Assembly: GCF_964204645.1 (NCBI RefSeq)
Contig: NC_134036.1
Location: 6,416,600 to 6,480,599, forward strand
Source: Tubulanus polymorphus
Taxonomy: Eukaryota > Animalia > Nemertea
Reading direction: 5' to 3'
Length of the DNA: 64,000 nt
Below the pieces are notes generated by a model. That model was given only the letters and a program-made list of their open reading frames with translations. It had not been told where the DNA came from and ran no database searches. The position numbers and the translations under genes are program-made. Shown here in pieces: positions 5,267-59,100 of the stretch (the first letter of the stretch is position 1; every line of letters begins with the position of its first letter).

Positions 5267-5945
5267 ATGAAAATGCTTGCTTATCTATTAACTCGCGTAT
5301 ATGCGATCGTCGCGATTGTGGTCACTGTTGCGTCATTTGCGGAGGCATGGGGTGAGTGGTCACGACTGAGAATTTATTACAGAAATTTCCATCGGATTCA
5401 TCGGAGGAAACAACCTAAAAAAATTCAGATAGACGTTTCAAACCCATCGAAATTTAGCGAAAAGTTTCCAAATATTTAATGCAGACATTTTTGCACGGCA
5501 TTTTACTGAGTAATTTTTCATAGAAATATATCACGATCAAGTGATTAGATTTACGTATTCCAAATTATAAAAATCCTCTAAATAACCTCTCATTTGTTCC
5601 CGAATATTTTCTAAATAAGGCATTCACTTTTGGGCCACGGTAAAATAAAAAGCCGGCTCTGATTAATGCGAATTTAGTCGGGGGATTGAAATGGGATAAA
5701 TGCTTTGCGTGCGGGCGTCTATCAACCCTCAATGCTAACATATCGCTCACTCGTCTAAATGGATCTACCTGAACCCGGGCTTAATAATAGAATTTTGTAA
5801 AACACTGTTGTTTTTGAATGTAAATTTCGTTTCTTTTGGTCATATTTTAGCTTGCGGCTCCATAGGCCAATCGTGTAAGGCTTCCATCGAATGCTGCGAC
5901 CCTAACCCTTGTCAAAACTCGGTGTGTACACCGTACGCGGGCTAA
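5267..5945 (+). CDS. Secreted inhibitor-cystine-knot (knottin) toxin-like peptide precursor, 59 aa; join(5267..5351,5851..5945)
   Basis: GTGAGT donor at 5352 and ttttag acceptor at 5850 (phase 1) give MKMLAYLLTRVYAIVAIVVTVASFAEAWACGSIGQSCKASIECCDPNPCQNSVCTPYAG*; C-X6-C-X5-CC-X4-C-X4-C; several AATAAA near 6110-6130. Confidence 0.85.
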
Positions 5946-8047: not shown

Positions 8048-14633
<6,586 letters not shown>

Positions 14634-26173: not shown

Positions 26174-29100
26174 CTATCTATTTTTACGGTGTTGCCTGCG
26201 TTTCGTTTTTGCTCGTATGGATTTCATATCGATAGTCAGTATTGTGTAAAGAAGGGGATTGAGGGACGAGTTGATCGGTAAGAAAAGAACCGCCAGCCAA
26301 GCCGCCACCTGATTCGGTATTTCTACCCGTAATACGGCGCAAAACTGAACGATAATCAACGGCAGCCAGCAAAATAGATTACACAGATTTATCACCAAAC
26401 TCCTGCGCGCTAAAACTAGTTCTGTAGGGTCAATTCTACCCGAACCAGACCTGCTTCCAGATACGAGTCGGTACATTTGCGCATAAGTGGCCATTATCGT
26501 AGAAAGAATGAAGAAGTTGGTTAATGAAAAAATAGCGAATGAATATTGCCAGGCGTTGACATCAATTGAAACCAAATTCATAGGTAAACAAACTCCGGTA
26601 GTGCCGTAGTAATTGTCTCCAAAGTAAGAGATCGGTGTAAGTGGTAGCATTGCAATAACACACAAAACAATCCAACATGCGCAACAAATGATACACGCAT
26701 ATCTCGGAGATGTAATTGGGTTATCAGAGAATGGGTCTACGATATTTGAGAATCTATGACGTGTCATGATTAGTAAAAATATCAATGAACCTTCGCAAGA
26801 AATAGTGACCACGACTCCAGCAAGACGACAAATCAAACTGTCCGTCCAGGCTTCCGAATTGAGAAAGTAAATACCTTTGTAGATATAATCAGCTCCAGCG
26901 ATCAGAAACAAATATATAGACATCATAAAATCACACAGAGCAACATTAATGATGATGATGTCTGAAAATGGATTTGAGGAGGAGAATCGAATCGCTCGAA
27001 TGCGAATAGAAATGACGATTCCATTAGCGATGAAACTGAATGAAGCGATCACCCAAATGATAGCTCTGAGGACTGTGTTACCCATCAGATCAGAACAAGA
27101 GGAAAATTGATCAGCTTCGGGAAGGCACCGGTCAACATTCGGAGCCATGCAGCAAAATTTGTAAGCGTCTGACCTCAGTGAGACTAATGATGTCAGATTG
27201 TCAAAAACATGTCTGGGGACGGAAATAATTTTGTTATTATTGGTTAAATCAAGAATTTCGAGTGACGTTAATCCAGAAAATGCGTATCGTGAAATTTGAT
27301 AGATTTTGTTACCGCTGATATTCAACGACTGTAATGTAGATAAACCCACAAACGCGCGTTCAGAAAGCATCAATATAAAAAGTCCTTGAATATCAAGAAT
27401 TCGGAGTGATCTCAATCCCGAAAAACTGCTTTCCTGCAAATAATGAATCGGATTTTTAGTTACGAATAACTCCTTCAAACTGTACAAACCAGTGAATGTA
27501 TTTGTTGATAATGATGTTACGTTGTTGTATGTCAGGTCTAATGTATGTAGATTATGCAGGTTTGAGAACGAATTCGGTAAAATATAAGTCAATTCATTGA
27601 AGGAGATGTTGAGCATTCGAAGATAAACATATGGGGATAATGTGAACACGTCCAAGATGATTCGGTTGTTCGACAATATCAAAACTCGGGTTGATGCCGA
27701 GAAAAGTCCGGTAATATTTGTTAAACCAGTATTTCCACAATCGATAAAGTTACCTTGACATGTACACACTCTTGGACACGTGACCTTACAGTAAGCCTCG
27801 TCATCAGTTGTATGTTTACAATTTGCGACTCCGTCACAGACCTCAGATTGTGGAATACATCTATTTTCCTGACCACATTTAAACATTCCCGGACATGAAA
27901 ATGTCTCGCAGTTTTGTTCATCTTCTGAATTAGGACAATCTGATTGACCGTCGCACACCTGTCTGATCGGTATACAGTACGATGAGGGACATTTAACAGT
28001 ACCAGCAGGACATTGAAATTCTTCACATCTCAACACGTGCTCGAGATTTCTACAAACAGGGTAACCATTTGTCATTCTCTCTAGAATACATCTGTGACGT
28101 CTTGAATAACAATGAGGTGAATTGAAAGAACATCTTTGTTCATCAGATTCCGTACAGAGATTTGTGAAGTTAGTCGTACAGTGGTTGTCATTATTGCACT
28201 GAACCGTAGGATTCACTGTAATATTAATATTTGTTACTAGTTCATCTTCTTCGAGGCTCCCACTGCAATCTACGACACCATCCTGATACAACTGAGAACT
28301 GATACAGTCTCCACTGTAACATAGGAATCCCTGGCACAGTTGAGCGGTGCATCCTATTTCGTCGGAGCCGTCTTCACAATCAGTGACACCATTACATCTA
28401 TCAAAACTGCTGATACATTGTCCACTTTGGCAGCTAAATTGTTCAGATAAACACGGGGTATAAAAACACGCGTTCTCATCAGAGCCATCCACACAATCCT
28501 GTATGAAATCACAGAAACCACTTATTGATATGACCTGACCATCATTGCATTCAAACTGATTTTGTAAATTAATATCCGTACAATTAAGTTCATCTTCACC
28601 GTTTTGACAGTCGTGTCTGGTATCACATACGCGATGGTCGCTGATACATCTTTGATCGTTACATTCAAACTGCCACGATTTACAACCGCTTATAGAAGCT
28701 AACTCTTCATCAGTGACATTGTGTGAACACAAAACAGAACGCGCTGTATCTGTCGCATTATCAAACTGTTTCATCGTCCATTTGACTGATTGAATATAAT
28801 TAATTTTATCTCTCGTGAGTATTGGGTTTATAACTTGCAGTTTTTCATTAGAAGTCACCATTAGTATTGAGCTATATTGATATTTGAAATGAAATGTTCT
28901 TATCAAGTTCATCGTGTCGTTTTCGGTGTTATCGGTTATCACAGCGCCTATTTCACCTCGTATGCCACGACACATCTCTGTTGCAGTTTCTATATCTAAA
29001 CCTCGATGTCCGTTCCAATTTGTCAGTATTTGATAGCATTGTCTATCCATGCTTACCCATCCAACCGTGCAGAAAGGTTTGTCCCGTATCAATAATGTGT

Positions 29101-32100
29101 CGTTGTTTGTTGAATTTATCGTCCTCAGTGTTTTATTTTCGGAATCATTTCTTTCCGTTTCGCAAATGAAACTCGTGTGAACCTCTTCGATTCCGCAGGG
29201 GAATCGAACCCAGTTCGCTGATCCGCGTGGATTATTCAGTATCATCGCCGTACACGGCATATTGACGTCATTTATCGGTTGTTTTCTAATAGCAGATATC
29301 AATCCTTGAATAACTTCTGGTATCGTGTCGTTATTTGTAGGTTTATACCACTCTGTGTAGCTCAATGGTTTCCCGTCAGACCACGTGTAAGAACTAGATC
29401 TAGCCTGGAAATTTAAGTGGCCTATATATTATTATATGTACATCATATATATCATTACATGTAATCTGTTGCCATTAGTAGTTTTTAACGAGCTGATCTT
29501 AAAATCTACCTGCAGTTTTAATCCAACCATCATAACGAGCGCTTTCAGCGAGTATGCTTTACGAAGAAGTTCCGTGGCAAATAATGTCTTAATAGAAATC
29601 ATTTCCTGTTGTGAGTTGATACTGAGTAGATGTCCCGCGTACTTCTGTCTACAGTACAATTCAGCATTCTCCCAATTCAGACGTTTATCTCTGATGTATT
29701 TCACGCATGAAATTCCCGAATCTAGAAATCCTGATTTACAGACATTTTCAAACTGTTTTATCGGTAACGACTGTTCTAATATGTATTGTATTCGAAATGT
29801 CGGTACGCGACCTTGTACCTCTATTTTCAAGTCCATATGACTAAGACTATAAAAAACCTGTCCTGGTATCGCGAAATTGTTACATATTTTACTGCTGTGC
29901 TCCTGCGATTGGTCGGGGCCTACAGTGATGAAACGTTTGACCACGATAGGGTTGTAGTCAGAATCTTTTCTAATCGCACACGGTATCTTTGCGATATATT
30001 TTATTATGAATCTGAAGTATAGTATTTTGAATCTGAAATATAGCATTATATACCTATCTCGGATATATATTTTATATGCCAATAGTTCATTGGTTTTACC
30101 CGCTAATCCTGGATAGTTTGGTGACTGAATAATTCCACACGTTACCACGACGTTACTTTGTCGTTCCCTTATTTTCAACAACCGTTGACATTCACTCCGT
30201 AGTTCAACTAGTAATGGATATGTAATGAATGCTCGATCATTAGATACCCGGACAGTGTTTAACACAAGACCGCTATTAAGGAACTGGCTATTCAACCGCG
30301 TGTGACAGTGGCTGTATAGATAGTGATCCTGAAAACATCGGTCAACTTGATATTCATACTCTGATAATATGTTAATGTACCTTTGAGGAAGGCGTCGGTT
30401 TTCGGGTGTAATCACGAGACAATGTGACGTCATATTGATTTGAAGTTCTCCTTCCTTTAAAACGTACCCGTCACAGTCGGTAGGACGAAATCTGAGATAT
30501 GAATAATAACTATCGACTGTTAACTTACCGTCCCAGCTATAAGCGTATCCAACTACGGTGACCGATCCACCTGATGTAATCAGACTGACAACTGATCGAC
30601 TAAAGTCATTGCCGGGACAATACGGACCGTAGCGTCTAGCCGTGAAATTACCACCGTCGTATATGTAAAATCCAGCTCGCTCGCAGTTCTCTGATAAAAC
30701 TGTTAGTTCCATATTCTCTTCATAGATAGCGACTCTTAATCCAAACACTTTTCGATTGACGCGATATCTCATCGAGTTCTTCTCTGGAGTTGGGAACAGT
30801 GATTGTGGTGTCATTTCGTTATATTTCTGGACATAAATGAGTTATCATTAACTTCTTTAAACTATTATCTGTTTATCATTATATAGTGATACATAGTAAC
30901 CTTATATAAAATATGTGACTCACCCAACCTTTGTAGACCTCTACATCTTCTATCGAAATTGATTCAACTTTGTACGCTATTTCAAACGTCACATCGTCGT
31001 GGAGTGTTGCTATCAAAACGCACAGTACGACGAGAAAGCCGTCAGATTTGACACTCAGTGATTCCAGGTAGTTGTAACTGAGTAAAACATCAGTTCCTAC
31101 TACGCGTAACCCTTCTAGTTTATATACACCGATGACGCCACCGGATGTGCTGAGATCACGTGTCCAGTTGAAGACGACGTACTGTAACACCTGCACCGTG
31201 ATAGACCAGCAGTGTAAGTGTTTTGATCGAGTTATTATGTGTAAACTGTTGTCATCGGGAATGAGCACTCCCGACTCATCATTAGAGATCTGAATCAACG
31301 GATTAGAGACGTTCCAATCAGATATTTTATAAAGTTGAACCACAAGCTGTGATTTGATTAGAATTTTATAGGATACTAAAGAAGCCTTGTTCATTTTAGT
31401 ATAAAACGAGGATGTTGGATGTCCGGATTGTTGGCGTATAAGACCTATCGGTTCACTGTTGGAGTTCCATCCGTCGTGAATTTTAAATGGTGTCTTGACG
31501 TAATACCGTGATTTGAGATTGATGAGGGTTAGATTCATTCCTAAACCGTCTGGCATTCCTATCCATTCAAGAAACATTGTACAAAAACGAATAAATAAAT
31601 TGAATTTGTATCCCATTGGCGTTTTTAATTCATTCACGTTGAGAAATGAGTTTCCACAGTTGCCACTGATTCTCAATCGGCTTCGTTCATAACGGTATAT
31701 GATATAAACCCGACTACCTCGCGCACCATCGACGCGGCTCCTAAACATCAACGAGATCGAATCTTTGCGGCGGATTTGATGTTTTCCGTTACTGCAGAAT
31801 CTGATATCAGCCTCGTAGACGAGAAGGTAGTTATCACTACAGAATATTGACAGCTCGATGTCGTAGTAAAATTGGACGAGAAAAGTTCCCGGTAAAGAGC
31901 TGTTGATGAACCAACGACATTCAACACCGCGCGTTAACGTAGGGTAATTCGGTGAAACGATGTAACCGGACGTAGAATCTAGCGGGTACCACGTGTTGTT
32001 ACAAGACGAACTTACCGTCACAGACGATTCCTCGATAGAGTCGGCTCGATCAGCGCGCGCGATGCGAACTTGACAGACGATCAGCGACGCTATAAACAGC

Positions 32101-36770: not shown

Positions 36771-37664
36771 TTAGATCAGCGAAAATATCGAAATATAGCG
36801 TATGAAACAAATCAGTATTCAGAAATTTCTAAAAAGCGACAGCTCGATAAATAGAATGTTTTTTTTTCCGTGAGATCGAACCAGGAAAGCACTTTTGCCC
36901 GAGTAAATAGTGATGCGCGCGTGGGTCGATTTTGAAATCGACCGGGTGCTCATCGATTCGGCTCGACAAAACACCGATATAGATTTCACTCAATATCAAG
37001 CTGTACAATCGTTGGTATAATTAATGAAATATTTCACACAGCGTGTTTTGTTCGAACAGTTCGTGTTCTCCATAAAGACTAAGGTACGCCCGGAGAATGT
37101 ACGATTATTCAATTATTTCGCAATCGAACGTCCATTGTCAGAGTATGCTGGTTAAAGTTTCATGAGGACATTTTGGTCATTAATTTCTATACAGCATGAT
37201 AGTCCAGTCATATTAAAGTTGAGGTTAGACAAAATTGCTCAAACTCTAATTTTATGATAAATTGACAGAACGTTCTTACCTCAGTTCATATACGATATCA
37301 ATATGGTTTGTATTCTTTTGCGACAATGTAACAAAATGCATTTCCATGGCAACAGCATCCTGTTTTCACCATATTTTGGGTATATAGATAATTATGTGGG
37401 GGCCAAGTCGTTACAAAAATACAAACATAGGGTCAAAACTTATGTTTTCTAATATGCGCTGTCCATATATGGCATTTAGAAATTGATTCAAGGTCAAGGT
37501 CATGTCAAATTTCAAATTCAAATTCAAACCAAGCACAGCAATTCCAATATGTCTTACGCTAATTCTTATTTTAAACGCCTTCTTTACGTACGGAAATACA
37601 ATATATCAATTACAAATGATCAGGTTAAATATTCATCATCAGATGAAAACATTGTTTCTTAGAT

Positions 37665-38390
37665 TATGAATTGTCGCAGGCGATAAAACCAAAATATTGA
37701 AGTGTCACAGGCGATAAAACCAAAATATTGAAGGGTCGCAGGCGATGAAACCGCGACAAAAAAAAAAAATTGTCGCGGGCGATAAAACCAAAATAATGAA
37801 TTGTTGCAGGCGATAAAACCAAAATAATGAATTGTCGCGGGCGACAAAACCAAAATATTGAATTGTCGCGGGCGATAAAACCAAAATAATGAATTTTCGC
37901 GAGCGATAAAACCAGAATAATGAATTGTCGCGGGCGATAAAACCAAAATAATGAATTGTCGCTGGTGATAAAACCAAAATATTGAATTGTCGCAGGCGAT
38001 AAATCCAAAATATTGACGTGTCGCGGGCGATAAAACCAAAATATTGAAGTGTCGCAGGCGATAAAACCGCGACAAAAAAAAATTGTCGAGGGCGATAAAA
38101 CCAAAATAATGAATTGTCGCGGGCGATAAAACCAAAATATTGAATTGTCGCAGGCGATAAATCCAAAATATTGACGTGTCGCGGGCGATAAAACCAAAAT
38201 ATTGAATGTCGCAGGCGATAAAACCGCGACAAAAAAAAATTGTCGCAGGCGATAAAACCAAAATAATGAATTGTCGCGTGCGACAAAACCAAAATAATGA
38301 ACTGTCGCGGGCGATAAAACCAAAATAATGAATTGTCGCGGACGATAAAACCAAAATCATGAATTGTCGCGGGCGACAAAACCAAAATTA
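37665..38390. repeat. About 31-bp tandem satellite (aattgtcgcgggcgataaaaccaaaataatg) with higher-order variants
   Basis: More than 20 units; explains three overlapping spurious ORFs. Confidence 0.95.
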
Positions 38391-38494
38391 TTGTTTTGTC
38401 GCGTTATTTTAATTTTTTTCGTTTTGTCATAATGTCGCCCTTTGCATATTTGCATATACGTGTTTTATACGCATGGCCCTTATCAGCCACCACA

Positions 38495-43290: not shown

Positions 43291-45985
43291 AACACACTGC
43301 AGAAAAGAAAAGCAGGCTATGTATAGCAATTGGTTGGATATTCGCATTTTATTATTGATTATTTATGTCACCAAGGAGCCTATATAATAAGCATGTACAT
43401 ATATTTTTGTTACCTGCTATAGTGCCCTGCTGTGGGTAAGGTACCTCTTTAGTAATACTTAGAGTATCTCTTTACCGGCGGTTTGTGTTGAATCACCCGG
43501 GGAATTTCTGGCTGAGTACGGTCGGTGGGTATGGTCAGTACTGAAATTGTTTTAACCAGGAGTGCTTCAATTGAGTGTTGAGCGCATAGGAGATACAGCG
43601 ACCCGAATTGAAAGCTGTAACCCGGGTGTAACGATTAATACTCCATACATCCATTGCAGATATTGACACGTTAATGATATCCAGTAATTGAATAAATGTA
43701 ACAAATTTATTGCATGCGAAAAAAAAACGGTGAAATGTGAACAACGCAAAAATAAGGGGGAGTCTAGTGTATATAATGATGATTTATCATAGAATATCCC
43801 CGACAGAAAATAAAATTGAAAGATCGTTTTGACTGGCGATATATACCAAACACTCTGCGCTATTTCATTTATCTGTTCGATGTTGCCTGCGTTTAGATTT
43901 TGCTCGTATGGATTTCATATCGATAGTCAGTATTGTGTAAAGAAGGGGATTGAGGGACGAGTTGATCGGTAAGAAAAGAACTGCCAGCCAAGCCGCCACC
44001 TGATTCGGTATTTCTACCCGAAATACCGCGCTAAACTGAACGATAATTAACGGCAGCCAGCAAAATAGATTGCAAAGATTTATCACCAAACTCCTACGTG
44101 CTAAAACTAGTTCTGTAGGGTCAATTCTACCCGAACCAGATCTAATTCCAGAAACGAGTCTGTACATTTGTACATACGTTGCCATTATCGTAGTGAGTAT
44201 GAATGAGTTGGATAATGAAAAAATAGCTAATGAATATTGCCAGGCATTGACTTCAATTGAAATTAAATTCATCGGTAAACAAACTCCGGTTGTACCGTAG
44301 AAATTGTTTCCGAAGTAGGGGATAGGTGTTAGAGGTAGCAATGCAATAGCACACAAAATAATCCAAGATGTGCAACAAATAGCGCACACATATCTGGGAG
44401 ATGTAATTGCACTTCCTGAAAATGGATTAACGATATTTGTGAACCTATGACGTGTCATGATGAGCAAAAATATCAATGAACCTTCACAAGAAATAGAGAC
44501 CGTGATCCCAGCAAGATGACAAAATGGACTATCCATCCATAATTCCGAATTGAGAAAGTAAATGCCAGAATAAATGTAATCGGCTCAAGCGATCAGAAAC
44601 AAATATATAGACATTATGAAATCACACACAGCAACATTAATGATGATGATATCTGAAGATGGATTTGAGGAGGAAAATCGAATCGATCGAATGCGAAGTG
44701 AAATGACAATTCCGTTAGCGATGGAACTGAATGAAGCAATAACCCAAATGATAGCTCTGAGGACTGTGTTACCCATCAGATCAGAACAGGAGGAAAATTG
44801 ATCAGCTTCCGGAAGGCACTGGTCAACATTCGGAGCCATGCAGCAAAATTTGTAAGCATCAGACTTTAAGGAGACCAATGATGTCAGATTGTTGAAAACA
44901 TTTCTGTCGACAGAAATAACTTTGTAGTTGTTGGATAAATCAAGAATTTCAAGTGAAGTTAATCCAGAAAATGCGTAAAGCGAAATATGATGGATTCTGT
45001 TATTGCTGATATTCAACGACTGTAATGTAGATAAACCTCGAAATACGTTTCTACCAAGCACCAACAACGAAAGTTCGTGAAGGTCGAGAACTTTAAGTGA
45101 CTTCAAATCTTGGAAGGTATCGTCCTGTAAATGACGTATTGGATTTTCAGTAATCAATAACTCTTTCAAACTATACATACCGATGAATGTTTTTGCAGAT
45201 AATGATGTTATGTTGTTGTGTGTAAGATCTAATGTATGTAGATTATGCAGGTTTGAGAACGATTTAGGTAAAATATAAGACAATTCATTGGCGGAGATGT
45301 TGAGCATGCGCAAATAGATATGTGAAAGGAATGTCGACATGTCTAAGGTAATTTCGTTATTCGACAAAATTAAAACTCGAGTTGATGCCGAGAAAAGACC
45401 GGTAATGTTTGTTAAACCAGTATTTCTACACTCGGTCAGATGACCTTGACACTTACAACCACTCAGACAGGTGACGTTACAGAAAGCCTCGTCATCAGTT
45501 GTATTTTTACAATTTACGACACCATCGCAAACTTCAGATTGTGTAATACATCTATTTTCATGGCCGATTTAGCAACACTAATCTGACAGCTAAGCTCTAA
45601 AATAGATATTGAAAAATGGGTATCAAAATAATCGACAGAATCTTGCGATTCTGAATTTTGTATTTATATTCAAGTATTATAAGTTTTATAAATCAATATG
45701 TTTGTGTTTTTTTTTATTAACTAAAATATTGTCTGAACCTATTGGAGTATTAACATGTTCATGCAAGCTGTTACCTTCCTGGCAGGTATGACCAGTCAAG
45801 GGTATCGCAAACAAGCGAACTTGTCATTTCTTGAGATCGACAATCTGTCGTTCTGAGTAATTATTTATAATTTATAACAATGTGTAATTAACAAGTTTGT
45901 ACCAACAATTAGCAGGTTTGGCATTGGTTACCACCAACAAGGGTGATCCAAACCTTAGTTACCGTGGGCAAAGTCACGGAACAGA

Positions 45986-46050
45986 CCAATCAGGGTTATG
46001 GTATTTTTGAGGTATAAATAGTGGACGAAGGGCAGCTGAGGTCACTTTAT
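45986..46050 (+). promoter_or_regulatory. LTR promoter: CCAAT, TATA box, initiator
   Basis: CCAAT 45986, TATAAATA 46013-46020, Inr-like TCACTTT with A at 46044, 31 nt from the TATA start. Confidence 0.75.
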
Positions 46051-46116
46051 GATGAACCTCGCTTTAAGGAATAAATCTGTGTATATTTTAATCGTCTGCT
46101 CTTCGTCAAATTACAG

Positions 46117-46599
46117 GTATGTGTAATAAGTTTTATAATATTTTATTAAGTCATATTCTATGGAAATATTGACTAGGCCTAGGATGTACTTTATTTAATA
46201 ATATTACTTATTAAGTATGGCCGAATACATGGTGTTTTAATATAATAGTTGAAATAATATTAATCAATTATACTAGAGCAATAGTATGTGTTTAAATAGG
46301 TTAGATGTTCTTGAGCAGTTATGTTCTATTTTAATTAACTTGGCCGCCATTTTTGGCAAGTAATCAATGAGAATTACGGCCAGAATATGCTCGATATCAG
46401 AGAACATTAGTTTCGTATTTAAGTATTATGAAATAAGTCGACAGTATACTAATCATTAAGATAAACACGTTTTATATTTAATCTGTATCATTTATACTCA
46501 TATATCATCACATATCTATTAATGTCACTTTATGATGAACCTCGCTTTAAGGAATAAATCTGTGTATATTTTAATCGTCTGCTCTTCGTCAAATTACAG
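46117..46599 (+). other. Predicted 483-bp GT-AG intron inside the LTR, bounded by a 77-bp direct repeat (46041-46117, 46524-46600)
   Basis: CAG|GTATGT donor; AT-rich body; ttaat...tctgctcttcgtcaaattacAG| acceptor. Same in the 3' LTR (repeats 55535-55611, 56018-56094). Confidence 0.6.
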
Positions 46600-46681
46600 G
46601 GTCTGGCGTTTGTAGTTGTCTTAGCTAGAACTACCGAAGGTTACTGAGGAATACATCTATCCAAACTTTCTATTATTAAAA

Positions 46682-46691
46682 TGGTGGAGAA
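46682..46691 (+). promoter_or_regulatory. Primer-binding site, probably tRNA-Ala
   Basis: TGGTGGAGAA 1 nt after the LTR, complementary to a ...UUCUCCACCA tRNA 3' end. Confidence 0.7.
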
Positions 46692-46708
46692 CCCAGCTTC
46701 GAATACCG

Positions 46709-47684
46709 ATGCCACAACCATCTAACTACCGTACGATCGTAACAAGACAACAAACGAACCAAGTTCGGCAAAACGTTGAAGACCCAGTATTGATTCCGCT
46801 ATACGAGCCGCCGAGAGATATTCGACAAATTGTAGTTCGCGAGGAGGACGAGGAGGTACATCTGGCAGAAATCGACCAGGTGGATAACGGTATAGACATT
46901 AACGAAAACCTAGAGGGTAACATGCCTTATAAACTCGACCTTCCGGGTTACGACCACAGTCGGCCTATCAAAAGTTGGCTGAATGACTTTGACCGTTGGG
47001 TCCAAGCGACAAATATACCGCTCGAGCAGCAAACCACAGCCCTAATACTGCGTTTATCTGGTTCCTCCAGATCCGCCATAGATACATTGACTCTCGAACA
47101 ACAGAACGATTTGGAGGAAGTAAAAAAATGCTTGGAAAATAAATTTAAACCTATAAGAGACCCAATGAGAGGTCTAGATAAACAACAAGCAGGCGAGTCC
47201 GTACAGGCGTACATGGACCGAGTAGAAAGGGCAGCTAGCCAGTCAGAATTTACGTTGACATGTGCTATCGAACAGGCCATAGATTGCCTTAACGACTCTA
47301 TTAAACCTTTAGTCGCAACTCATTGCCCTGATACATTTGATAAATTAAGGAAAATTGCAATGAACGCAGAATCAGCAGCAGGGGGTAAAATTACCGCGAC
47401 TTGTAGTCTCACCACAGCGGTCGACAAACTAACTAGTCATTTGGAAAATGTACAATTGCGACCGGACAATAAGGTGTGTGCATGTCAAGTAAACGCGATA
47501 ACCGATAGTAAAAGTGACAATGGATTTAATTATGCGAATAGACAGAATTATCAAACACAGCAACAACAACAGTCCTGGTCTCCTCAATTCGTGCCACAGC
47601 CACAACAGTTTTGGCCGCAGCAGCAGTTTTGGGCGCCACAACATCAGCCGCAGTTCCAGCAACCGCATTTCCAGCAGCCGCAGT

Positions 47685-47715
<31 letters not shown>

Positions 47716-47983
47716 ATTCCATCAGCCGCAGTTCCAGCAGCAGCAGCAGCAGCAACAGTTCCAACAGCCGCAGTTCCAGCAGCAGCAGCAGCAGTTCCAA
47801 CAGCAGCAGTTCCGGCAACAGCACTACAGGGGACACCAGCGGCATAGAGGGAACAGCAATAGGAGAAATCAATGGTCGCAGCCGAATGGACAAAATAATT
47901 CAGGTAAACGCGTTCCATTATGTTATACATGCAATACCCCAGGTCATATATCTCGAAATTGTCCGAACTCAGGTCAGAAATAG
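46709..47983 (+). CDS. gag: Gag with polyglutamine tract and CCHC zinc knuckle
   Basis: Capsid-like region (QQAGESVQAYMDR), QQPQF repeats, CYTCNTPGHISRNC. Confidence 0.92.
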
Positions 47984-50900
47984 GGGTGCGAGCCTGTCCA
48001 AGAGAATCCAACTATGGACGGGCACCCGAAGGTTGAAGTTGCGTTCCTGGCGACATTAGAGAAAAATGTTGCCACAGTATTTGTGTCGGGGCACAGAATT
48101 AACGCATTGCTTGACACAGGTGCTGGTATTTCTTGTATATCATTGTCATGTCTGAACAAAACTAAATTTGCTAATGAAACGTTGTCAGCGCCTGAGATAA
48201 AAGAAGTAGTTGGCGTGAGTGGAAGTAAGTTGTCGGTCCTAGGTACGGTAAACCTGCCCCTAATCTTCCCGGGTATAAAGACGCCAGTCGAGCAAAAATT
48301 TCATGTATTTCAACATCTTCATCAACCCCTTTTACTAGGTTTAGATTTCATAACGGAGAAGCAGGTAATAATTGATATACCCAATAAAGTCTTTAGTATG
48401 ACGAGTGTTGAGGATAAAGTTTTGAGCATGGAGATCCATACTAAGTTTGCACGCACGATTAAACCAATCAAATTGAAAGCTAAATCAGAACTTCAAATTC
48501 CTGTGAAAGTTTCTAAAACTCTTGATAAACAAACTGTACTTTTGTCACCAATATAAGAATTGGTGGCTATGAATTATACAGGTGCCCGTTGCTTAGTAAC
48601 AGTTAATAATGGTAGAGCAGTAATGAGATTATTGAACCCAACTAAATCAGTTATAAAAATTCCAAAAGGGCAATCTATAGCATATATATCGGATGTTGAA
48701 GAGTCATCAATTATGTCACTTGACGCAGAAGAAACTGTTTCTGTAAATAATATTAATGATGAAACACCGGATTATGATACTAGCGAAGCTATGAAGTTCC
48801 CTCCTACGGGACACACTCCAAAAGTTGAAGATTTACAATTTGACTTATCTAATTCGGATCTAAATAATGAACAAAAAGAATTGTTACTAGCTTTCCTTCA
48901 TAGGAATCGTGATAGATTTTCTTCCAACTTGAATGAATTAGGGCATACTTCCATATACGAACATACTATTGATACTGGGGATAGTCCCCCGGTTTGCCAG
49001 AGGCCATATCGCTGTAATGGGATAATTAGAGAAGAGCAAGATCGTCAGATAGACGAAATGCTCAAAGCCGATGTTATAACTACATCAAACTCACCGTTTA
49101 ATTCACCTGTTGTGATGGTAAAGAAAAAGTCAGGCGAATATCGCTTCGCGGTGGACTATCGTAAATTAAATGCTATTACTAAATCGGTTTCTTACCCACT
49201 ACCACGAATTGCCGACGTTGTTGACTCCGTAGCAGAGTCTAAAGCAAAATTATTTACAACTCTCGATATGACCTCCGGTTTCTGGCAAATTAAGTTAGAT
49301 CCGGCTACTATGCATAAATCTACCTTTGTTACTCAAAATGGCGCCTACATGTTTAAAAGACTACCATTTGGTCTTAAGAATTCACCCATGGCATTCCAAA
49401 TGACCATGAATGAAGTCCTCCGTGGCTATCATTGGAAATTTTGCTTAGTGTATGTAGACGACATTTTGGTATACAGTAGAGACTTTACAGAACATTTACA
49501 GCATTTGCAACTGGTTTTTAACCGTTTACGACAAGCTAATATGACATTGAAGCCGTCCAAATGTCACTTTGCTCAAAGCAGTGCCCCATATTTGGGATAT
49601 ATTTTCACCAAAGATGGTGTAAAAGCAGATCCGTCGAAATGTCAGGCAGTACAAACGTTCCCAGTTCCTAGAAACGTGAAAGAACTGCGCTCATTCTTGG
49701 GCTTGTGTAACTTTTATCGCCGTTTCGTCTGGAATTATTCGCATATCGCTACTAAATTGACTCCATTGTTACAGAAAGAATCCAAATTTATTTGGACTGA
49801 TGAGCATCAGGAAGCATTTCTACAATTGAAAGAGTGCCTATTATCGCCACCCATTTTAGCCTATCCTGATAATGATAAAGAATACTTACTCTGCACTGAT
49901 GCGTCTGATACAGCGGTAGGTTATATACTGGCTCAGCGCGACGATAATGGTCGCGAGCGCGTTATTTGTTATGGTGGTCGTGCTCTTTCTGCCCAACAAC
50001 GTCGTTGGGATACTAGGGAAAAAGAAGGTCTAGCTATTGTGCTAGGAGTAGACGCATATAGGGAATATTTGGCCCCTAAAAAGTTTACTATTTATACTGA
50101 TCACCAGTCCTTGACTTTCTTAGATAATGCTAAGGATATGACCACGAAAGTTGCTAGGTGGGCAACAAAGTTACAAAATTATGAATTTGACATAATACAT
50201 CGCCAAGGCAAGAAAAATGATAATGCGGATAGCCTATCTAGACGCGAATACCCTACTGTCATTGATACTAGTGAACATGACGACTTCCCGGCGCCTATTG
50301 ATGTAGTGTCGCCAGGAGTACATGAACTATTCGCAGATCTGTTTCAAAAGGATACAGGTGAATCACCGCCGGCCGGTAACCATACATCGTATGGATGGCG
50401 GCAAGCTGAGTTTCAGTACGATACTAAGGGTTGCGAGACTGAAAGTACACGAGACGATATGGAAGCTGAGGTTCCTGTTTGTGTAGTGGATGATTTAGAT
50501 ATCGCTACCACTCAGCGTGCTTGTTCAGATTGCTTGCCTATCATTCAATATTTGGAACATGATATCTTACCCCAGGATCGGAAGTTGGCCATCAAAGTGC
50601 AATGGTCGTCTCAATGCTTTCACATGTACAAAGGAGCGCTTTACCGTAGTTATCAGCGTAACCAGTCTCCTAGAGGTCTACCTTCGGTTACTCAGCTAGT
50701 AGTACCGATAAGCTTGAGACCAGACGTGCTGTTCGCGTATCATGATTGCAGGGCTGGAGGAGGCCATGTCGGTATCCAGAAAGTATACGATGCTATGAGG
50801 CAAAAATATTACTGGAAAAATATGTACCGAGATATTACTCAATATGTTTCTTCATGTATGTTATGTCAGAAAGCTAAAGCTCCTACTCACCAAAAATCAC

Positions 50901-52125
50901 CACCTCTCGCTAACATGCCTATAACCGACACATTTGCTAGATGGCATATGGATTTCCTCGGTCCACTTCCGGAGGGCCAACTGGTGAGAAGCATATCTTA
51001 TTAGTCGTAGATAGTTTCTCTAGGTGGCCCGAAGCCTTTGCGCTTAAAACTCAGGAAGCTTCAGAAGTAGCCAAAGTTTTGTACGATCAGATATTCGCTC
51101 GATACGGTGCACCAGGTGCATTAGTTTCAGATCGAGGTGCAAACTTTCTATCCAAACTGGTAACAGCAGTTTGTGAGCTGTTCCAAGTCACACGTACTCG
51201 TACATCAGCTTACCATCCTCAAACAAATTCTACCTGTGAACGGACCAATAGAACCATCGCTCAGATGTTCCGTACTTACGTCAAAGAAGATCAAACAGAT
51301 TGGCCCGACGTGTTGTCGAGTGTTCTTATGGGTCTTAGGTCTTCAGCTAGCCAATCGACGGGATTTTCCCCCTTTCAGGTGTTATTTGGCAAAGAAATGA
51401 ACCTACCTATTGATACCTCATTAATACCCAAGGATAACCTCCCTACCACGGTCACGGACCATATAAATCAATTGAAAGATCGCTTGTCTATTGTTAAGGA
51501 TATAGCTAAATCCCAAAATGAGACCGCACAATTACGAAACAAAAACTTACATGATAAGAAATCAGCCACACCTACGTTTAAATTACATGATAAAGTATTG
51601 CTTAAGAATAATAAAGTGGGGAGAGGTAAATCCAAGAAATTTACTACGAAATATAAAGGGCCATACTATATTTCTCAGTATGGTAAGAATTTCACGTATC
51701 AATTGCGCTCTTGCGAAGATGATACACCTTATAAGTCGCCACTTAATGCATCACTGCTGAAACCATATGTTGATAGTGGAAAATTTCCGCATTTGCGAAA
51801 AACCGCAGCGGATGGGGATAAGCCACAAACCGATAATACCAATAGTATCCCTGCACCTAGCAGCAACAAAGTTCAGGCCAGGCCCAACACTAATGTCACT
51901 GCGAAAGATGGCAAAATGTACAAAATTGACAAAATATTAGGCACGAAATTCAAAAATAATGTAAGAGTATTCAAAGTTCAATGGTCAGACAAAAACTCAA
52001 CAAACTCATGGGTCAATGAGGACGATGTCACTCAACTCGCAATCGACAAATATTTTGAAACCCACACCAGAAAAGGCACAGGCCGAAAAAGAAAAAGACA
52101 ATCAGTTTTCAAATCGCGGCGCTAG
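47984..52125 (+). CDS. pol: Pol: aspartic protease, RT, RNase H, integrase, chromodomain; internal TAA at 48554 and frameshift near 50975
   Basis: LLDTGA; LPFGL and YVDD; CTDAS and YTDH; H..GGH..C..C zinc finger; D, D(SDRG), E(CER) core; GPY motif; YKIDKIL...FKVQW...NSWVNEDDV chromodomain. Confidence 0.95.
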
Positions 52126-52230
52126 GTGTCATTCGAGCATCTTTGTTGCAACATTGCAATCGCCTCATTTCAACTCCGCTTGGGAGCAATTTAGATCAGA
52201 ACTTAATTTTATGTTGAAAGTTTCTGTGCT

Positions 52231-54753
52231 ATGGGTCACCGGCCGGGACCTCTTTTACTTATCAATACTAAATTTTGGCCTCTCTTCTTCTTTTCTCCTG
52301 TAGGCGAATCTTCTCAAGTTGGGCACTGCCTCATAATAGTTGCTTTGTTAACGGTGTTTTCATTAATACCCGCAGCCGCCGCTTTGAATCAGCCCATCAA
52401 TTATGGTGTAACTTTCGGAAAAGTGGGCACAGTAAGTCAGTCCAACGAATATTGGCTACATACATTCTGTATTGTATTGCCTCGAGAAATGAACATGGCC
52501 CAATTCGGCGATTGCCACGACCAGAGTCCTATATGCGTATTGCGACACAAAACAGCTATTCACCTAAACGAGTTACAAACGCGACTAAATACTCATGTCC
52601 GCTACGTTAACCAGTATGTTCACGATTTAATTCCGGAACACGTCAGCTTAAATAAATCTAGAAGTCGCCGCGGAGCCCCTTTAGGCTTCATTGGCAGTCT
52701 TTCAAAAACTCTATTTGGTACCGCGACAATGGATGACGTGGAACTTTTAGCCTCGCATATCAATGCTTTGCAGCAACGTTCGTCAGAATTAGCTACTGCT
52801 TTAACGCAGCATGGCGATCATTTGTCCTCATATACGAGGAACATGCTTAAAAGAACTGATAAGGCGTTCAAGGGTATAAAGGCGAACCATAGAGCGATAT
52901 CGGATTTATATACGCAATTTCAAGCAACCACCAATGATATTATAGCAGCTTCAGCTAGCATTGACAAAATTTACGCGACTTACGCGGAAACTAGCTTAGA
53001 AGCAGAACTGCACTTATCTGAGTTTAAAGCGTCGGTAGCTCAATTATTACGTGGGAAATTATCACCAAGTCTCATTCCTATCCAGGTCCTACAAGACGCC
53101 ATGAACCAGATAAGCGCAGTTCTTATTACGAAACATCATAATTTCAAATTAGTCAAAGTAGCACCCACATTTTATTATGACCATGGAAGGCTTTTGATGT
53201 CTAGGAAAGGACCAGAAATATTTGTTTCGGTTAAGTTTTTAATTACGCCCTTAGCGGCTCCACTTCATATGTTTCGGGTGAATTCATTCCCTATGCCTGT
53301 CCATGACACTTCGAAGCACTCGACCACAATTGGGAATTTACCAACGTATCTAATTGTATCAGCGGATGCTCAGTATTATTCAGCTTTTACAGTATCTGAC
53401 GTGGCCGAATGTCGGCATTATTATAAGCATTGGCTTTGCCCATTTAATCAAGCCTTGTCGACGGCATCTAGTAAATCTTGTATACTTGCTTTATACTTAG
53501 GAGATAAAGATAATATTATAAAGTTTTGCGATTTTAGAGTCAATCTGGATTCAGTACGTTCGAAAATTGTCGAATTGGAACCATCCACTTTAGTTTTGTA
53601 TAACGTACCAAGAATTGCTTTGAAATGTTGCCTTTCGGAAAAGTACGTCGAGGGTTGTTCCTTTTGTATTAAACACATTCCTTGTTCCTGTCAAGTCAGC
53701 GCACCCGGTTTAAAATTAAGTCCGCGTTTAAATTCATGTAGTCAGGGTAAGAATATTACGACAATTCACCCAGTAAATCTGGCCGTTATACAGTCATTTT
53801 TTGATATATCTACGCATGAAGCTATTTCTAGTGGGTTAGTCTTAGAAAGACCAGTTAAAGTGATACCACCTTCGTTTGATATCTATAATCATTCCATGAA
53901 CAGTCTTATTGCGGATGACGAGAAGCATAGTTTAAGTTTGAAGCGCGTAACTTCTGCAATTAAAAATGATAGTCGTATATTTAGAACTCTTTCTGAATCT
54001 GTAATGGCAGGAGAAGTAGCCATTAACGAGTCATGGCCCAGCAACAGGGACTTAGTTTCGTTACTGGCCCTTATTTTAGCGAGTACCTTGTTAGCTTTAA
54101 TAATTATTCAACAGTACCGTATCACTAAGTTAGCGGGTCTAGTTGCAATTTTACAAAATATTCACTCTGCTTCAGCAGCTACTATACCACCGGAATTTCG
54201 TTACGTGGGTCCTACCTTGGCAACCAAGACTGGGCCACTCGGATGGGAACCTCTTATTAGCTACATAACGTCATCTCTTGTCGTAACCTTTACGTTATTA
54301 GGCATTTGCACCTTAATCTATTTATTGTATCGACGCTTCCGCTTTACTCCTCATTCTACTTTAGTCATTGAGCTCTCTGATTCTGTTAGTTGCGTGCAAA
54401 TTCCCTTAATGAATTTTCAATTGTGCCCAGTGCATTTGTTGGTTTCGATACCTAGTAAAGTTGATGATGTAGATGTTGAAGGTCACTGCTTTCCCAAATT
54501 GATAGGAAAATGGGACAATTTTAGAGTAACCAATAGGTTAAGTCAACAATCTTGGCTAGTACCGACTTCTGTTAACTTATCGCTGGCACAAGCAAGGGCA
54601 GCACGATGTGCATTAAACTGTCCCTTGTCATTTACCATACATTTTGCTTTAGTTCACCATGATCGATTTTATATTTTGGAGAGCCCAGCTATAGCGCCAG
54701 GTCCGCGTGTTACTTCCAATCATGGACAACTACTCCCTATTACCAACGAATAA
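52231..54753 (+). CDS. env: Envelope glycoprotein, class I fusion (baculovirus F / errantivirus Env-like); probably spliced at acceptor 52303
   Basis: Hydrophobic signal LIIVALLTVFSLIPAAAA, furin site RSRR (52660-52671) followed by fusion peptide GAPLGFIGSLSKTLFG, heptad region, Cys-rich domain, C-terminal TM segments. Confidence 0.88.
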   Translation: MGHRPGPLLLINTKFWPLFFFSPVGESSQVGHCLIIVALLTVFSLIPAAAALNQPINYGVTFGKVGTVSQSNEYWLHTFCIVLPREMNMAQFGDCHDQSPICVLRHKTAIHLNELQTRLNTHVRYVNQYVHDLIPEHVSLNKSRSRRGAPLGFIGSLSKTLFGTATMDDVELLASHINALQQRSSELATALTQHGDHLSSYTRNMLKRTDKAFKGIKANHRAISDLYTQFQATTNDIIAASASIDKIYATYAETSLEAELHLSEFKASVAQLLRGKLSPSLIPIQVLQDAMNQISAVLITKHHNFKLVKVAPTFYYDHGRLLMSRKGPEIFVSVKFLITPLAAPLHMFRVNSFPMPVHDTSKHSTTIGNLPTYLIVSADAQYYSAFTVSDVAECRHYYKHWLCPFNQALSTASSKSCILALYLGDKDNIIKFCDFRVNLDSVRSKIVELEPSTLVLYNVPRIALKCCLSEKYVEGCSFCIKHIPCSCQVSAPGLKLSPRLNSCSQGKNITTIHPVNLAVIQSFFDISTHEAISSGLVLERPVKVIPPSFDIYNHSMNSLIADDEKHSLSLKRVTSAIKNDSRIFRTLSESVMAGEVAINESWPSNRDLVSLLALILASTLLALIIIQQYRITKLAGLVAILQNIHSASAATIPPEFRYVGPTLATKTGPLGWEPLISYITSSLVVTFTLLGICTLIYLLYRRFRFTPHSTLVIELSDSVSCVQIPLMNFQLCPVHLLVSIPSKVDDVDVEGHCFPKLIGKWDNFRVTNRLSQQSWLVPTSVNLSLAQARAARCALNCPLSFTIHFALVHHDRFYILESPAIAPGPRVTSNHGQLLPITNE

Positions 54754-55059
54754 TTCGTTGTTTTCCTTTTTATATGCTACGATTTTGTACATTATGAATA
54801 TTATGTAACTTTAAGATATCGTACATTAAAAAAGTACGTTTTAAATGTATGTAACTTTTGCATGTTTACGAATGTTGTGTAACTATAAGCTATCACGGAA
54901 CATTATACATGTATGTAACTATATTTCTTTATATTTGATTGTATCACCAACTATATTTGTGTAGGTAATTACGTTTTGCTGGTATTATTTTATATCTCTT
55001 ACCCATAAGGTAGGGTTTCATTTTGCTTTTGAGGACAAAAGCCAACCATAGTGTGTGAG

Positions 55060-56174
55060 GATTTAGCAACACTAATCTGACAGCTAAGCTCTAAAATAGA
55101 TATTGAAAAATGGGTATCAAAATAATCGACAGAATCTTGCGATTCTGAATTTTGTATTTATATTCAAGTATTATAAGTTTTATAAATCAATATGTTTGTG
55201 TTTTTTTTTATTAACTAAAATATTGTCTGAACCTATTGGAGTATTAACATGTTCATGCAAGCTGTTACCTTCCTGGCAGGTATGACCAGTCAAGGGTATC
55301 GCAAACAAGCGAACTTGTCATTTCTTGAGATCGACAATCTGTCGTTCTGAGTAATTATTTATAATTTATAACAATGTGTAATTAACAAGTTTGTACCAAC
55401 AATTAGCAGGTTTGGCATTGGTTACCACCAACAAGGGTGATCCAAACCTTAGTTACCGTGGGCAAAGTCACGGAACAGACCAATCAGGGTTATGGTATTT
55501 TTGAGGTATAAATAGTGGACGAAGGGCAGCTGAGGTCACTTTATGATGAACCTCGCTTTAAGGAATAAATCTGTGTATATTTTAATCGTCTGCTCTTCGT
55601 CAAATTACAGGTATGTGTAATAAGTTTTATAATATTTTATTAAGTCATATTCTATGGAAATATTGACTAGGCCTAGGATGTACTTTATTTAATAATATTA
55701 CTTATTAAGTATGGCCGAATACATGGTGTTTTAATATAATAGTTGAAATAATATTAATCAATTATACTAGAGCAATAGTATGTGTTTAAATAGGTTAGAT
55801 GTTCTTGAGCAGTTATGTTCTATTTTAATTAACTTGGCCGCCATTTTTGGCAAGTAATCAATGAGAATTACGGCCAGAATATGCTCGATATCAGAGAACA
55901 TTAGTTTCGTATTTAAGTATTATGAAATAAGTCGACAGTATACTAATCATTAAGATAAACACGTTTTATATTTAATCTGTATCATTTATACTCATATATC
56001 ATCACATATCTATTAATGTCACTTTATGATGAACCTCGCTTTAAGGAATAAATCTGTGTATATTTTAATCGTCTGCTCTTCGTCAAATTACAGGGTCTGG
56101 CGTTTGTAGTTGTCTTAGCTAGAACTACCGAAGGTTACTGAGGAATACATCTATCCAAACTTTCTATTTTTAAA
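55060..56174 (+). repeat. 3' LTR
   Basis: Direct repeat of 45566-46680. Confidence 0.95.
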
Positions 56175-59100
56175 CCACATTTAAACATTCCTGGACATGA
56201 AAATGTCTCGCAGTTTTGCTCATCTTCTGAATTAGGACAATCCGATTGACCATCGCACACCTGACTGATCGATATACAGTACGATGCTGGACATTTTACA
56301 GTACCAGCTGGACATTCAAATTCTTCACATCTCAATACGTGCTCATGATTTCTACAAACTGGGTAACCATTCGTCATTTTTTCTAGAATACATCTGTGAC
56401 GTCTTGAATAACAATGAGGAGAATTAAAAGAACATCTTTGTTCATCTAATTCCGTACAGAGATTTGTAAAGTTAGTCGTACAGTGGTTTTCGTCATTACA
56501 ATGGATCGTAGGATTCACTGTAACATTAGTAGTTGTTACTAGTTCATCTTCTTCGAGGCGTCCACTACAATCCGCAACACCATCCTGATACAACTGAGAA
56601 CTGATACAATCTCCACTCTTACACAGGAATCCCTGGCACAGTTGATCGGTGCATCCTATTTCGTCGGAGCCGTCTTCACAATCAGTGACGCCATTGCATC
56701 TGTCAGAACTGCTGATACATTGACCACTTTGGCAGCGAAATTGTTCTGATAAACACGGGGTATAAAAACACGAGTTCTCATCAGAGCCATCCACACAATC
56801 CTGTATGAAATCACAGAAACCACTTATTGATATGACCTGACCATCATTGCATTCAAACTGACTATGTAAATTAATATTCGTACAATTAAGTTCATCTTCA
56901 CCGTTCTTACAGTCGTGTCTGGTATCACACACGCGATGGTCGCTGATACATCTTTGATCGTTACATTTGAACTGCCACGATCTACAACCGCTTATAGAAG
57001 CTAACTCCTCATCAGTTACATTGCATGAACACAAAACAGAATGCGCTGTATCCGTCGCATTATCAAACTGTTTCATCGTCCATTTAACTGATTGAATATA
57101 AGTTATTTCATCTCTAGTGATTATTGGGTTTATAACTTGCAGTTTGTCATTAGAAGTCACCATTAGTATTGAGCTATATTGATATTTAAAGTGAAATGTT
57201 CTTATCAAGTTCATCGTGTCGTTTTCGGTGTAACCGGTTATCACAGCGCCTATTTCACCTCGTATGCCACGACACATCTCTGTTGCAGTTTCCATATCTA
57301 AACCTCGATGTCTGTTCCAATCCGTCAGTATTTGATAGCATTTTCTATCCATGCTTACCCATCCAGCCGTGCAGAAAGGTTTGTCCAGTATCGAGAATGT
57401 GTCGTTGTTTGTTGAATTTATCGTTTTCAGTGTTTTATTTTTGGAATAATTTCTTTCCGTTTCGCAAATGAAACTCGTGTGAGTCTCTTCGATTCCGCAG
57501 GGAAATCGAACCCAGTTCGCTGATCCTCGTGGATTATTCAGTATCATCGCTGTACACGGCATATTAATGTCATTTATCGGTTTTTTTCTAATAGGAGATA
57601 TCAATCCTTGAATAACTTCTGGTATCGTGTCGTTATTTGTAGGTTTATACCACTCTGTGTAGCTCAATGGTTTCCCGTCAGACCACGTGTAATAACTAGA
57701 TCTTGCCTGGAAATTTAAGTGGCAAATATATCATTACATGTACATCATAAATATCATTTCCTGTAATCTGTTGCCATTCGTAGGTTTTAACGAACTCATC
57801 TTAAAATCTACCTGCAGTTTTAATCCAATCATCATTACGAGCGCTTTCTGTGAATAGGCATTTAGAAGAAGTTCGATAGCGAATAATGTTTTAATGCTAA
57901 TCATTTCCTGTTCTGAGTTGATACTGAGTAGATGTCCCGCGTACTTCTGTCTACAGTACAATTCAGCATTCTCCCAATTCAGACGTTCATCTCTGATGTA
58001 TTTAACGCATGAAATTCCCGAATCTAGGAATCCTGATTTACAGACATTTTCAAACTGTTTTATCGGTAACGACTGTTCTAATATGTATTGTATTTGAAAT
58101 ACTGACCTTTTACCTCAATTTGCAAATCCGCATAAGTAAGACTTTAAAATACAAGACCCGGTATCGCGTTATTGTCACATATTTTACTTTGGTGCTCCTG
58201 CGATTGGCCGGGGCCTGCGGTGATGAAACGTTTGATAACTATAGGGTCAAAGCTATCCCCTTCTCTTTTCGCACACGGTATCTTTGCGATAGATTTTATT
58301 ATGCATCTAAAGTATAACATTTTATATCTCCTTCGAATACGTATTTCATATGATAATAGTTCATTGGTTGTATCCGCCAATCCTGGGTAGTTTGGTGACT
58401 GAATAATTCCACACGTTACCACGACGTTACTTTGTCGTTCCCTTATTTTCAACAACCGTTGACAATTACTCCGTAGTTCAACTAGTAACGGATATGTAAT
58501 GAATGCTCGATCATTAGATACACGGACAGTGTTTAACATAAGACCGCTATTAAGGAACTGACTATTCAACCGCGTGTGACAGTATCTGTATGGATAGTGA
58601 TCCTGAAAACATCGGTCAACTTGATATTCATGCTCCGATAATATGTTAATGTATCTTAGAGGAAGGCGTCGGTTTTCGGGTGTAATCACGAGACAGCGTG
58701 ACGTCATATTGATTTTACGTTCTCCTTCTTTTAAAACATACCCGTCACAGTCGGTAGGACGAAATCTGAGGTGTGAATGCACATTGACATTCAACTTATC
58801 GTCCCAGTTATAAGCGATACTACGGTAACCGATCCACCTGATGTAATCAGACTAACGACTGATCGACTAAAATCATTACCGGGACAATACGGACCGTATC
58901 GTCTAGCCGTGAAATTACCACCGTCGAATATGTAAAATCCAGCTCGCTCGCAGTTCTCTGATAAAACTGTTAGTTCCATATTCTCTTCATAGATCTCAGT
59001 TTTCCATTTAAACTCGTATCTAGTGACGCGATATCCAATTGAGTTCTTCCATGCAGTTGGGAACAGTGATGTTGATCCAATGGACCATATTTTGTTTACA

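Follow-up and report, generated by a model that had tools for sequence, protein, structure and literature searches.

Retroelements are thought to lose introns that are spliced from the RNA they copy. Penelope-like elements, which Arkhipova reportedly described in 2003 as keeping introns, are also intron-carrying retroelements, but not LTR/integrase elements. In the Rogers model, an intron is said to be gained by duplication of an AG/GT segment (the slash marking the splice junction); there, as at the locus described below, a single AG/G serves as both the end of an exon and an acceptor, but the duplication at our locus spans only the first exon, and strand transfer is expected to renew it.

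Among the nearest parallels are the HIV-2 5' UTR intron (PMC3315320) and the HTLV-1 LTR intron (bioRxiv 10.1101/2023.01.28.526022), which likewise have a donor and an acceptor within an LTR-derived leader, although in the accessible text of these reports no duplicate of exon 1 is described. Splicing of the HIV-2 leader raises Gag translation, and the intron is kept by excluding the spliced genomic RNA from particles (PMC3315320), unlike the cycle proposed here. In split-intron and intron-disrupted-poly(A) retroviral vectors (Ismail et al. 2000, 2001, as summarised in PMC3182074), a working intron is also put together during reverse transcription, when LTR sequence present at one end is copied to the opposite end; however, these are engineered and one-way, their product is no longer packaged, they have no doubled R region, and the intron is not rebuilt later. 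Foamy virus controls polyadenylation through U1, with a donor upstream of the signal that is masked at the 3' LTR (PMC3694450), whereas in the present element the donor follows the poly(A) signal of a first R copy, and the signal of a second copy would end the RNA. Insect errantiviruses splice env from leader exons (PMC12992720). The invertebrate Ty3/gypsy errantiviruses with F-type env, including a chromodomain clade of Cnidaria, Mollusca and Annelida (Chary and Hayashi, PMC13524379), share with our element the gag-pol-env order, a Baculo_F env, a tRNA primer binding site (PBS) and possibly a chromodomain-like integrase tail; neither an LTR intron nor a doubled R was found in the accessible text of that paper, the main text of which has no match to 'splic' and one to 'intron'. 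The accessible text of two further reports (10.1101/2022.12.06.519325 and PMC5542766) has no bearing here. No natural equivalent, in which a doubled R rebuilds an intron, was found in the literature searched, which extends to few subscription papers; further supplements of PMC13524379 could list the element.

The window, by which we mean the whole 64-kb stretch of DNA analysed, contains a complete-looking LTR element at 45566-56174 (Table 1). This is a gag-pol-env Ty3/gypsy errantivirus with an F-type env, and hence an element of a known kind; its LTR design is new, with partial support from RNA and from other families. The order of the pol domains after gag (PR-RT-RH-IN) fits this assignment, env lies 3' of pol and encodes an F-type fusogen (Baculo_F, E 6.8e-11), an env search found 60 relatives, and the two LTRs and tRNA PBS expected of an errantivirus are both present. 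By comparison with the PBS table of PMC13524379, the PBS appears tRNA-Ala-like. The named env and RT relatives are mostly molluscan, spiders also being among the RT matches. Whilst the integrase tail has no match to Pfam Chromo, it is 33% identical (E 2e-11) to that of a related element, L091, which matches Chromo at 1.8e-9. The termini are (GA)TTTAG..TTAAA rather than TG..CA, and the target duplication is at most 2 bp rather than 4-6 bp, features treated here as non-defining for Ty3/gypsy errantiviruses. Non-TG termini occur in insect errantiviruses; L091 has TG..CA. The left junction retains GA, the two bases after a PPT-like tract (55050-55059), as though the cDNA end had been joined to the target before it was processed. 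The pol of this copy is broken by a stop codon at 48554-48556 and a frame change in the 50941-51004 overlap.

Table 1. Features of the element in the window (all positions are those of the window).
Feature	Position	Strand	Details
5' LTR (U3 - R copy 1 - intron with R copy 2 - U5)	45566..46680	+	true start may be 45568
CCAAT box	45986..45990	+	58 nt before predicted TSS
TATA box, TATAAATA	46013..46020	+	
U3 arm, predicted to pair with R pyrimidine tract 46096-46107	46024..46035	+	-20 to -9, 12 bp
R copy 1, predicted exon 1	46041..46117	+	Inr 46042-46047; predicted TSS ~46044; AATAAA 46070; ends CAG/G
Candidate 5' splice site, CAG/GTATGT	46114..46122	+	8/9 to U1 consensus
Candidate GT-AG intron, 483 nt	46117..46599	+	27% GC; missing from some LTRs in DNA
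R copy 2	46524..46600	+	AATAAA 46553; branch-like TTTTAAT 46569-46575; pyrimidine tract; acceptor CAG 46597-46599
U5	46600..46680	+	
PBS	46682..46694	+	TGGTGGAG..., TGG at 46682; common to L126, L129, L131, L051
gag frame	46625..47983	+	first in-frame ATG 46709; zf-CCHC zinc knuckle; final TAG in frame with pro
pol (protease, RT, RNase H, integrase, chromodomain-like tail)	47984..52125	+	
env frame, F-type (Baculo_F)	52207..54753	+	strong acceptor ending at 52303
3' LTR	55060..56174	+	copy 1 55535-55611; intron 55611-56093; copy 2 56018-56094; AATAAA 55564 and 56047

The two LTRs differ by one mismatch over 1115 bp, being identical across 45566-46674 and 55060-56168; a copy at another locus aligns from 45568 (run X4). 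A preliminary description of this DNA had reported an exact 77-bp repeat within each LTR, running from an initiator at TATA spacing to the donor and containing AATAAA in each copy, and all of this was recovered at the expected positions. The A of the TCACTT initiator is 31 nt after the first T of the TATA box, and the repeat starts 3 nt before that A; that R starts at the cap is predicted from motif spacing. TATA boxes with TCABTY at the tested spacing occur six times on the forward strand, two of them in the LTRs and three in a TA microsatellite, and seven times on the reverse. No other near-perfect U1 donor lies on the forward strand, the two sites with at most one mismatch to CAG/GTAAGT in the 64 kb both being those of the LTRs. 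Were the ends of the repeat placed at random in a 1115-bp LTR, the chance of both meeting the two motifs would be about 3/1115 x 7/1115 = 2e-5, a figure from hand arithmetic with motifs chosen post hoc. The candidate intron ends in TTACAG, with no other AG in the preceding 46 nt, and carries the marks of a U2-type intron, namely GT..AG, a U1-complementary donor, a pyrimidine tract and a branch point, the last matched by eye. No AATAAA is present in the LTR outside the two R copies. The preliminary description misplaced one feature: the U/GU-rich tract following AATAAA, said to be a GT-rich tract after copy 2, belongs to the repeat itself, which gives each copy a full candidate poly(A) signal. 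Judging by its motifs, the same 73 nt of the repeat can act as a first exon, as a poly(A) cassette and as an acceptor, and copy 2 is predicted to be both the strand-transfer acceptor and the poly(A) site at the 3' LTR.

The best explanation of this arrangement, to which we give a probability of roughly 60%, is that the intron is spliced out and then rewritten by way of the doubled R during reverse transcription. Transcription would start near 46044 and the cap-proximal intron would be spliced, as the motifs suggest. Splicing at the 5' LTR would remove the copy 2 poly(A) signal, together with 14 of the 17 ATGs upstream of gag, leaving three; the signal in copy 1 would be kept silent by U1 bound at the donor and by lying so near the cap. 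At a 3'-type LTR, the RNA would be read unspliced through copy 1 and end in copy 2, before U5, for which one RNA-like run provides support. The U3 just upstream of the start site is predicted to pair there with the copy 1 pyrimidine tract, masking it in its roles of acceptor, poly(A) element and landing site. The spliced RNA would be packaged as the template, and strong-stop cDNA, composed of U5 and exon 1, would anneal to the terminal copy 2 and be extended through the intron, copy 1 and U3. Both new copies would then descend from copy 1 of the parent and so stay identical. Landing on copy 1 instead, or recombination between the copies, would give an intronless LTR of 632 bp; this form is found as DNA, and the route to it is what we infer.

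The reads covering 45380-46880 were examined in four (X1, X2, X4 and X5) of ten sequencing runs. Depths of X1 contigs are 345-381 over U3, 369 over the intron and about 360 over U5; being near-equal, they indicate that nearly all X1 LTRs hold the 483-nt segment. X5 consists of raw whole-genome reads from a different sample, with depths of 58-62 over U3, 29 over the intron and 25 over gag. Four of its reads, with four different starts, skip exactly 483 nt, compatible with a depth of about 10-25 for the intronless form, or roughly a quarter to half of LTRs. Dropout of AT-rich DNA was ruled out as the cause of this reduced depth over the X5 intron, because bins of U3 with 26-30% GC stay at 56-60. 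A 666-bp contig in X2 skips the same 483 nt at a depth of 126, against 31 for the intron piece, a difference to which graph simplification may have added. The predicted 632-bp LTR, shown by these reads and this contig, thus exists as DNA, and its abundance in two samples other than that of X1 means that the cycle would be leaky rather than obligatory.

The 3' half of the cycle fared better. X4 is RNA-like, its library type not being on record, and its contigs have depths of 139 over U3, 113.5 over copy 1 and the intron, 5.8 over U5 and 0 over gag, with a single foreign upstream flank. The depth falls from 113.5 to 5.8 between 46553 and 46582. A multi-copy host gene has a depth of 37 in X4 against 4819 in X2, which is from the same sample, a depletion of more than 100-fold relative to the LTR. 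These data support, but do not prove, RNA that enters a 3'-type LTR from upstream, ignores the AATAAA of copy 1, remains unspliced and ends in copy 2; a restriction-site library could hardly pass copy 1 and yet stop in an identical copy 2. No spliced 5' RNA was seen in X4, where gag coverage is nil and the LTR covered is of the 3' type, retaining the segment. A 46116^46600 junction, previously suggested as the RNA check, has the same letters as copy 2 followed by U5, because spliced exon 1 joined to U5 is that sequence, and is therefore invisible to short reads starting at the predicted TSS. Family members differ at few sites only, which makes the 77 identical bases weak evidence when taken alone. 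In X5, 9 of 45 reads, with six starts, carry an extra AG behind 46525, where copy 2 begins, and no insertion of this type at copy 1 was among the X5 indels listed. The insertion falls where strand transfer is placed by the model; in HIV-1, cap copying and misalignment mark the point of minus-strand transfer (PMC12172438).

The strongest competing account is that copy 2 arose by accident, once or on occasion, when a spliced leader was reverse-transcribed and jumped to the end of an RNA; an unspliced genome with a long R, of about 530 nt from the TSS to copy 2, would have been packaged since, with splicing used only for mRNA and the repeats identical by virtue of being recent. The abundance of intronless LTRs accords with such a history, as does the exclusion of leader-spliced genomic RNA from HIV-2 particles (PMC3315320), and an R ending in CAG/G would be predisposed to repeated independent origins. 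However, the unspliced genome must pass two AATAAA motifs at the 5' LTR, the second of which is 530 nt away from the cap and is not followed by a donor, and the AG variant lies at the start of copy 2 rather than at the U3-R border. We regard the accident as unlikely, though a serious competitor; the relatives of the element provide evidence in both directions.

Ninety loci from metagenome and viral collections were examined, most of which lack whole LTRs, and none has a repeat running from TSS to donor. The viral collections, searched with a single RT and with an env alignment, gave no match, and an env search of genome collections led to L091, which is host DNA inside a bacterial bin. From gypsy contigs of bacterial bins 104 stretches were then taken. 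Two Sedimenticola MAGs, G002 and G001, the source of L091 and L126-L238, have 151 and 18 gypsy RT matches respectively, as well as env-bearing elements, and are heavily contaminated with repeats of the host animal. An RT tree was built from the window and the 44 rows with the highest identity to it; here the window groups with L131, L127, L129, L130, L126, L128, L091, L149 and L001, at a support of 93/91, which is below the star threshold of the tool. These relatives have about 51% RT identity to the window, and no similarity was found between their LTR DNA and that of the window.

The R end is visible in five of the nine clade relatives. L127 (52% identical in RT and 33% in env) has U3, AATAAA, CTAAC, pyrimidines and TTTCAG/GTTAGT, followed by 64 nt of 23% GC to the end of the contig, a layout that matches copy 1. 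Its donor is the sole site of at least 8/9 in the 8-kb contig, and the full signature of poly(A) signal, acceptor and donor occurs once, in L127, in 107 sequences totalling 732 kb. A looser pattern gave six matches, against two for a reversed control; two of the five besides L127 were inspected and proved unrelated, one at the end of a recombinase-like ORF (judged by eye) and the other at an ordinary exon end. The presence of an acceptor-plus-donor R end in L127, a distant element with no LTR similarity to the window, argues against a one-off accident and in favour of the cycle. If this R end dates back to the split from L127, the 100% identity of the window copies needs continued homogenisation, which the cycle would supply.

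No relative, on the other hand, displays the complete layout, as an accident would lead one to expect. In L129, the sister of L127 (74% nucleotide identity in pol), the homologous R end leads into U5 and then the PBS, with no insert, and L126 is also assembled without one, as U3-R-AG-U5. In L131, 300 nt of 25% GC DNA with neither TATA nor CCAAT precede, in order, AATAAA, a strong acceptor, a U5 of 53 nt and the PBS; the arrangement resembles copy 2, although the upstream DNA could instead be a TATA-less U3. The L091 scaffold, which lacks a canonical AATAAA, is broken by 100 N exactly after AAG/G at the R end, and each side of the gap has a k-sized overlap of 91 nt, suggesting that the assembly graph branched at the end of R. 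No second R copy of L091, L127, L131 or L129 was found in G001 or G002, nor one of L091 in five genomes of the genus, and no relative had both copies among the matches listed in a search of 81 contigs for exact repeats.

The acceptor before the PBS is common to more of the clade. Four relatives score 8.7, 5.8, 2.9 and 2.1, against 26 outgroups with a best score of 6.6 (L135) and a next of 3.0 (p = 0.0007), on a crude home-made matrix and with outgroup PBSs picked by eye, L051 being added; outgroups with an ambiguous PBS or with little sequence upstream of it were omitted. L135, from an unrelated gypsy family, has AATAAA and a strong acceptor 71 nt before the PBS (580-700, reading orientation), with no duplicate in its contig. 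Donor-like sites of 7/9 lie within 150 nt before the PBS in six of the 26 outgroups (L160, L179, L184, L189, L194 and L200).

The predicted U3 arm would be present only in RNA in which U3 is transcribed, at the 3' LTR, hence it could mask copy 1 at the 3' end. In the transcript of the 3' LTR the U3:R helix is predicted with copy 1 at 0.71-0.98, though the hairpin of the window is not significant by itself (119 of 2000 shuffles reach 12 bp; z -1.08). Folds of U3 with R give z scores of -5.75 in L127, -3.38 in L129 and -3.97 in L091, compared with +1.53 for the copy 2 context of the window and 0.24 for L131. The equivalent helix is long in both L127 and L129, covering the pyrimidine tract and acceptor, whilst the fold of L091 comes partly from other stems, within TATA-R rather than between U3 and R. 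Immediately 3' of the TSS, the RNA is no more stably folded than its shuffled versions, whichever context is used (z +1.27 and +2.05), so that no special hairpin is attributed to R alone. L129 keeps the hairpin though assembled without the intron, hence the structure may have an older role in 3'-end formation. CCAAT-type motifs also recur, ATTGG being found at -62 in L127 and -64 in L129. A wider proposal, which we put forward tentatively and hold to be somewhat short of an even chance, is that a split R is an old, clade-wide strategy of invertebrate gypsy elements and errantiviruses, in which R would be exon 1, poly(A) cassette, splice acceptor and transfer target at once, a U3:R hairpin would steer the cDNA to the second copy, and a true spliceosomal intron would be removed from the packaged genome and rewritten in each cycle.

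A further alternative, which we consider improbable, is that the segment came from duplication or insertion at the R end at the level of DNA, and that the donor is only a U1 site suppressing polyadenylation or a donor for env, never being spliced to copy 2. Donors in or near R that suppress polyadenylation without splicing are known (PMC3694450), no direct splice read was seen, and the acceptor score of the window is moderate (4.4, compared with 10.6 for the env acceptor). Yet an accident in DNA has no reason to begin at the initiator and finish at the donor, and in relatives, too, R ends with a branch point, a pyrimidine tract and YAG. A role for exon 1 as the env leader was rejected, its ATG frame being out of phase with the env acceptor by eye. 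The last possibility, that an assembler made the repeat or the insert, is largely refuted: X2 contigs without part of the segment would fit it, but the segment is in both LTRs and is covered by contigs of X1 (depth 369) and X4 (113.5) and by raw reads of X5.

If the intron is indeed rewritten through the doubled R, the layout is a way round intron loss that uses only the standard steps of reverse transcription. It would also be a new solution to the problem of having identical LTRs in which poly(A) signals must be ignored at the 5' end and used at the 3' end, and would provide an LTR element with a promoter-proximal intron. Possible benefits of an intron include expression, export and escape from the silencing of intronless RNA. 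The model predicts that the R copies co-vary, that scars of strand transfer lie where copy 2 begins and that a collapsed form of 632 bp occurs, and the layout suggests a design for vectors that retain a leader intron.

A number of other features of the element and its surroundings were observed. The gag stop codon is in frame with pol in the window (TAG, 47975-48040), L091 (TAG, 5881-5883), L129 (TAG, 2401-2403) and L126 (TGA, 3428-3430, reading orientation), and a hairpin lies directly behind that of the window (z -2.59). Gag-pol readthrough is a feature of gammaretroviruses, and the in-frame stop with its hairpin suggests possible stop-codon readthrough here; the gag and pol frames of L051, L171 and L135 overlap instead. 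A CAG/QQQF-type repeat is found within gag (47627-47845). A second subfamily, about 90% identical, is present in X1, X2 and X5 (45790-46060 and 46552-46880), differing by an extra 29 nt in U3 and the loss of 3 nt from R; the contig that spans R, U5 and gag of this subfamily is unbroken for 2.1 kb. The window copy belongs to a sub-lineage of its own family, since it carries the minority base at 46605, 46639 and 46781, in U5 and gag (41 of 47 X5 reads differ at 46605, for example).

The element is inserted into an LDLa-LRR-7TM receptor gene of its invertebrate host, one of several such genes in tandem on the reverse strand (8048-11530, 26174-29428, 44585-45568 and 56135-57730), which we take to be those that go under the GRL101-like label. 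The gene family has a very high copy number in the DNA runs, with depths of up to 9793 in X1 compared with about 350 for the LTR. A 31-bp minisatellite is also present in the window, at 37600-38450.
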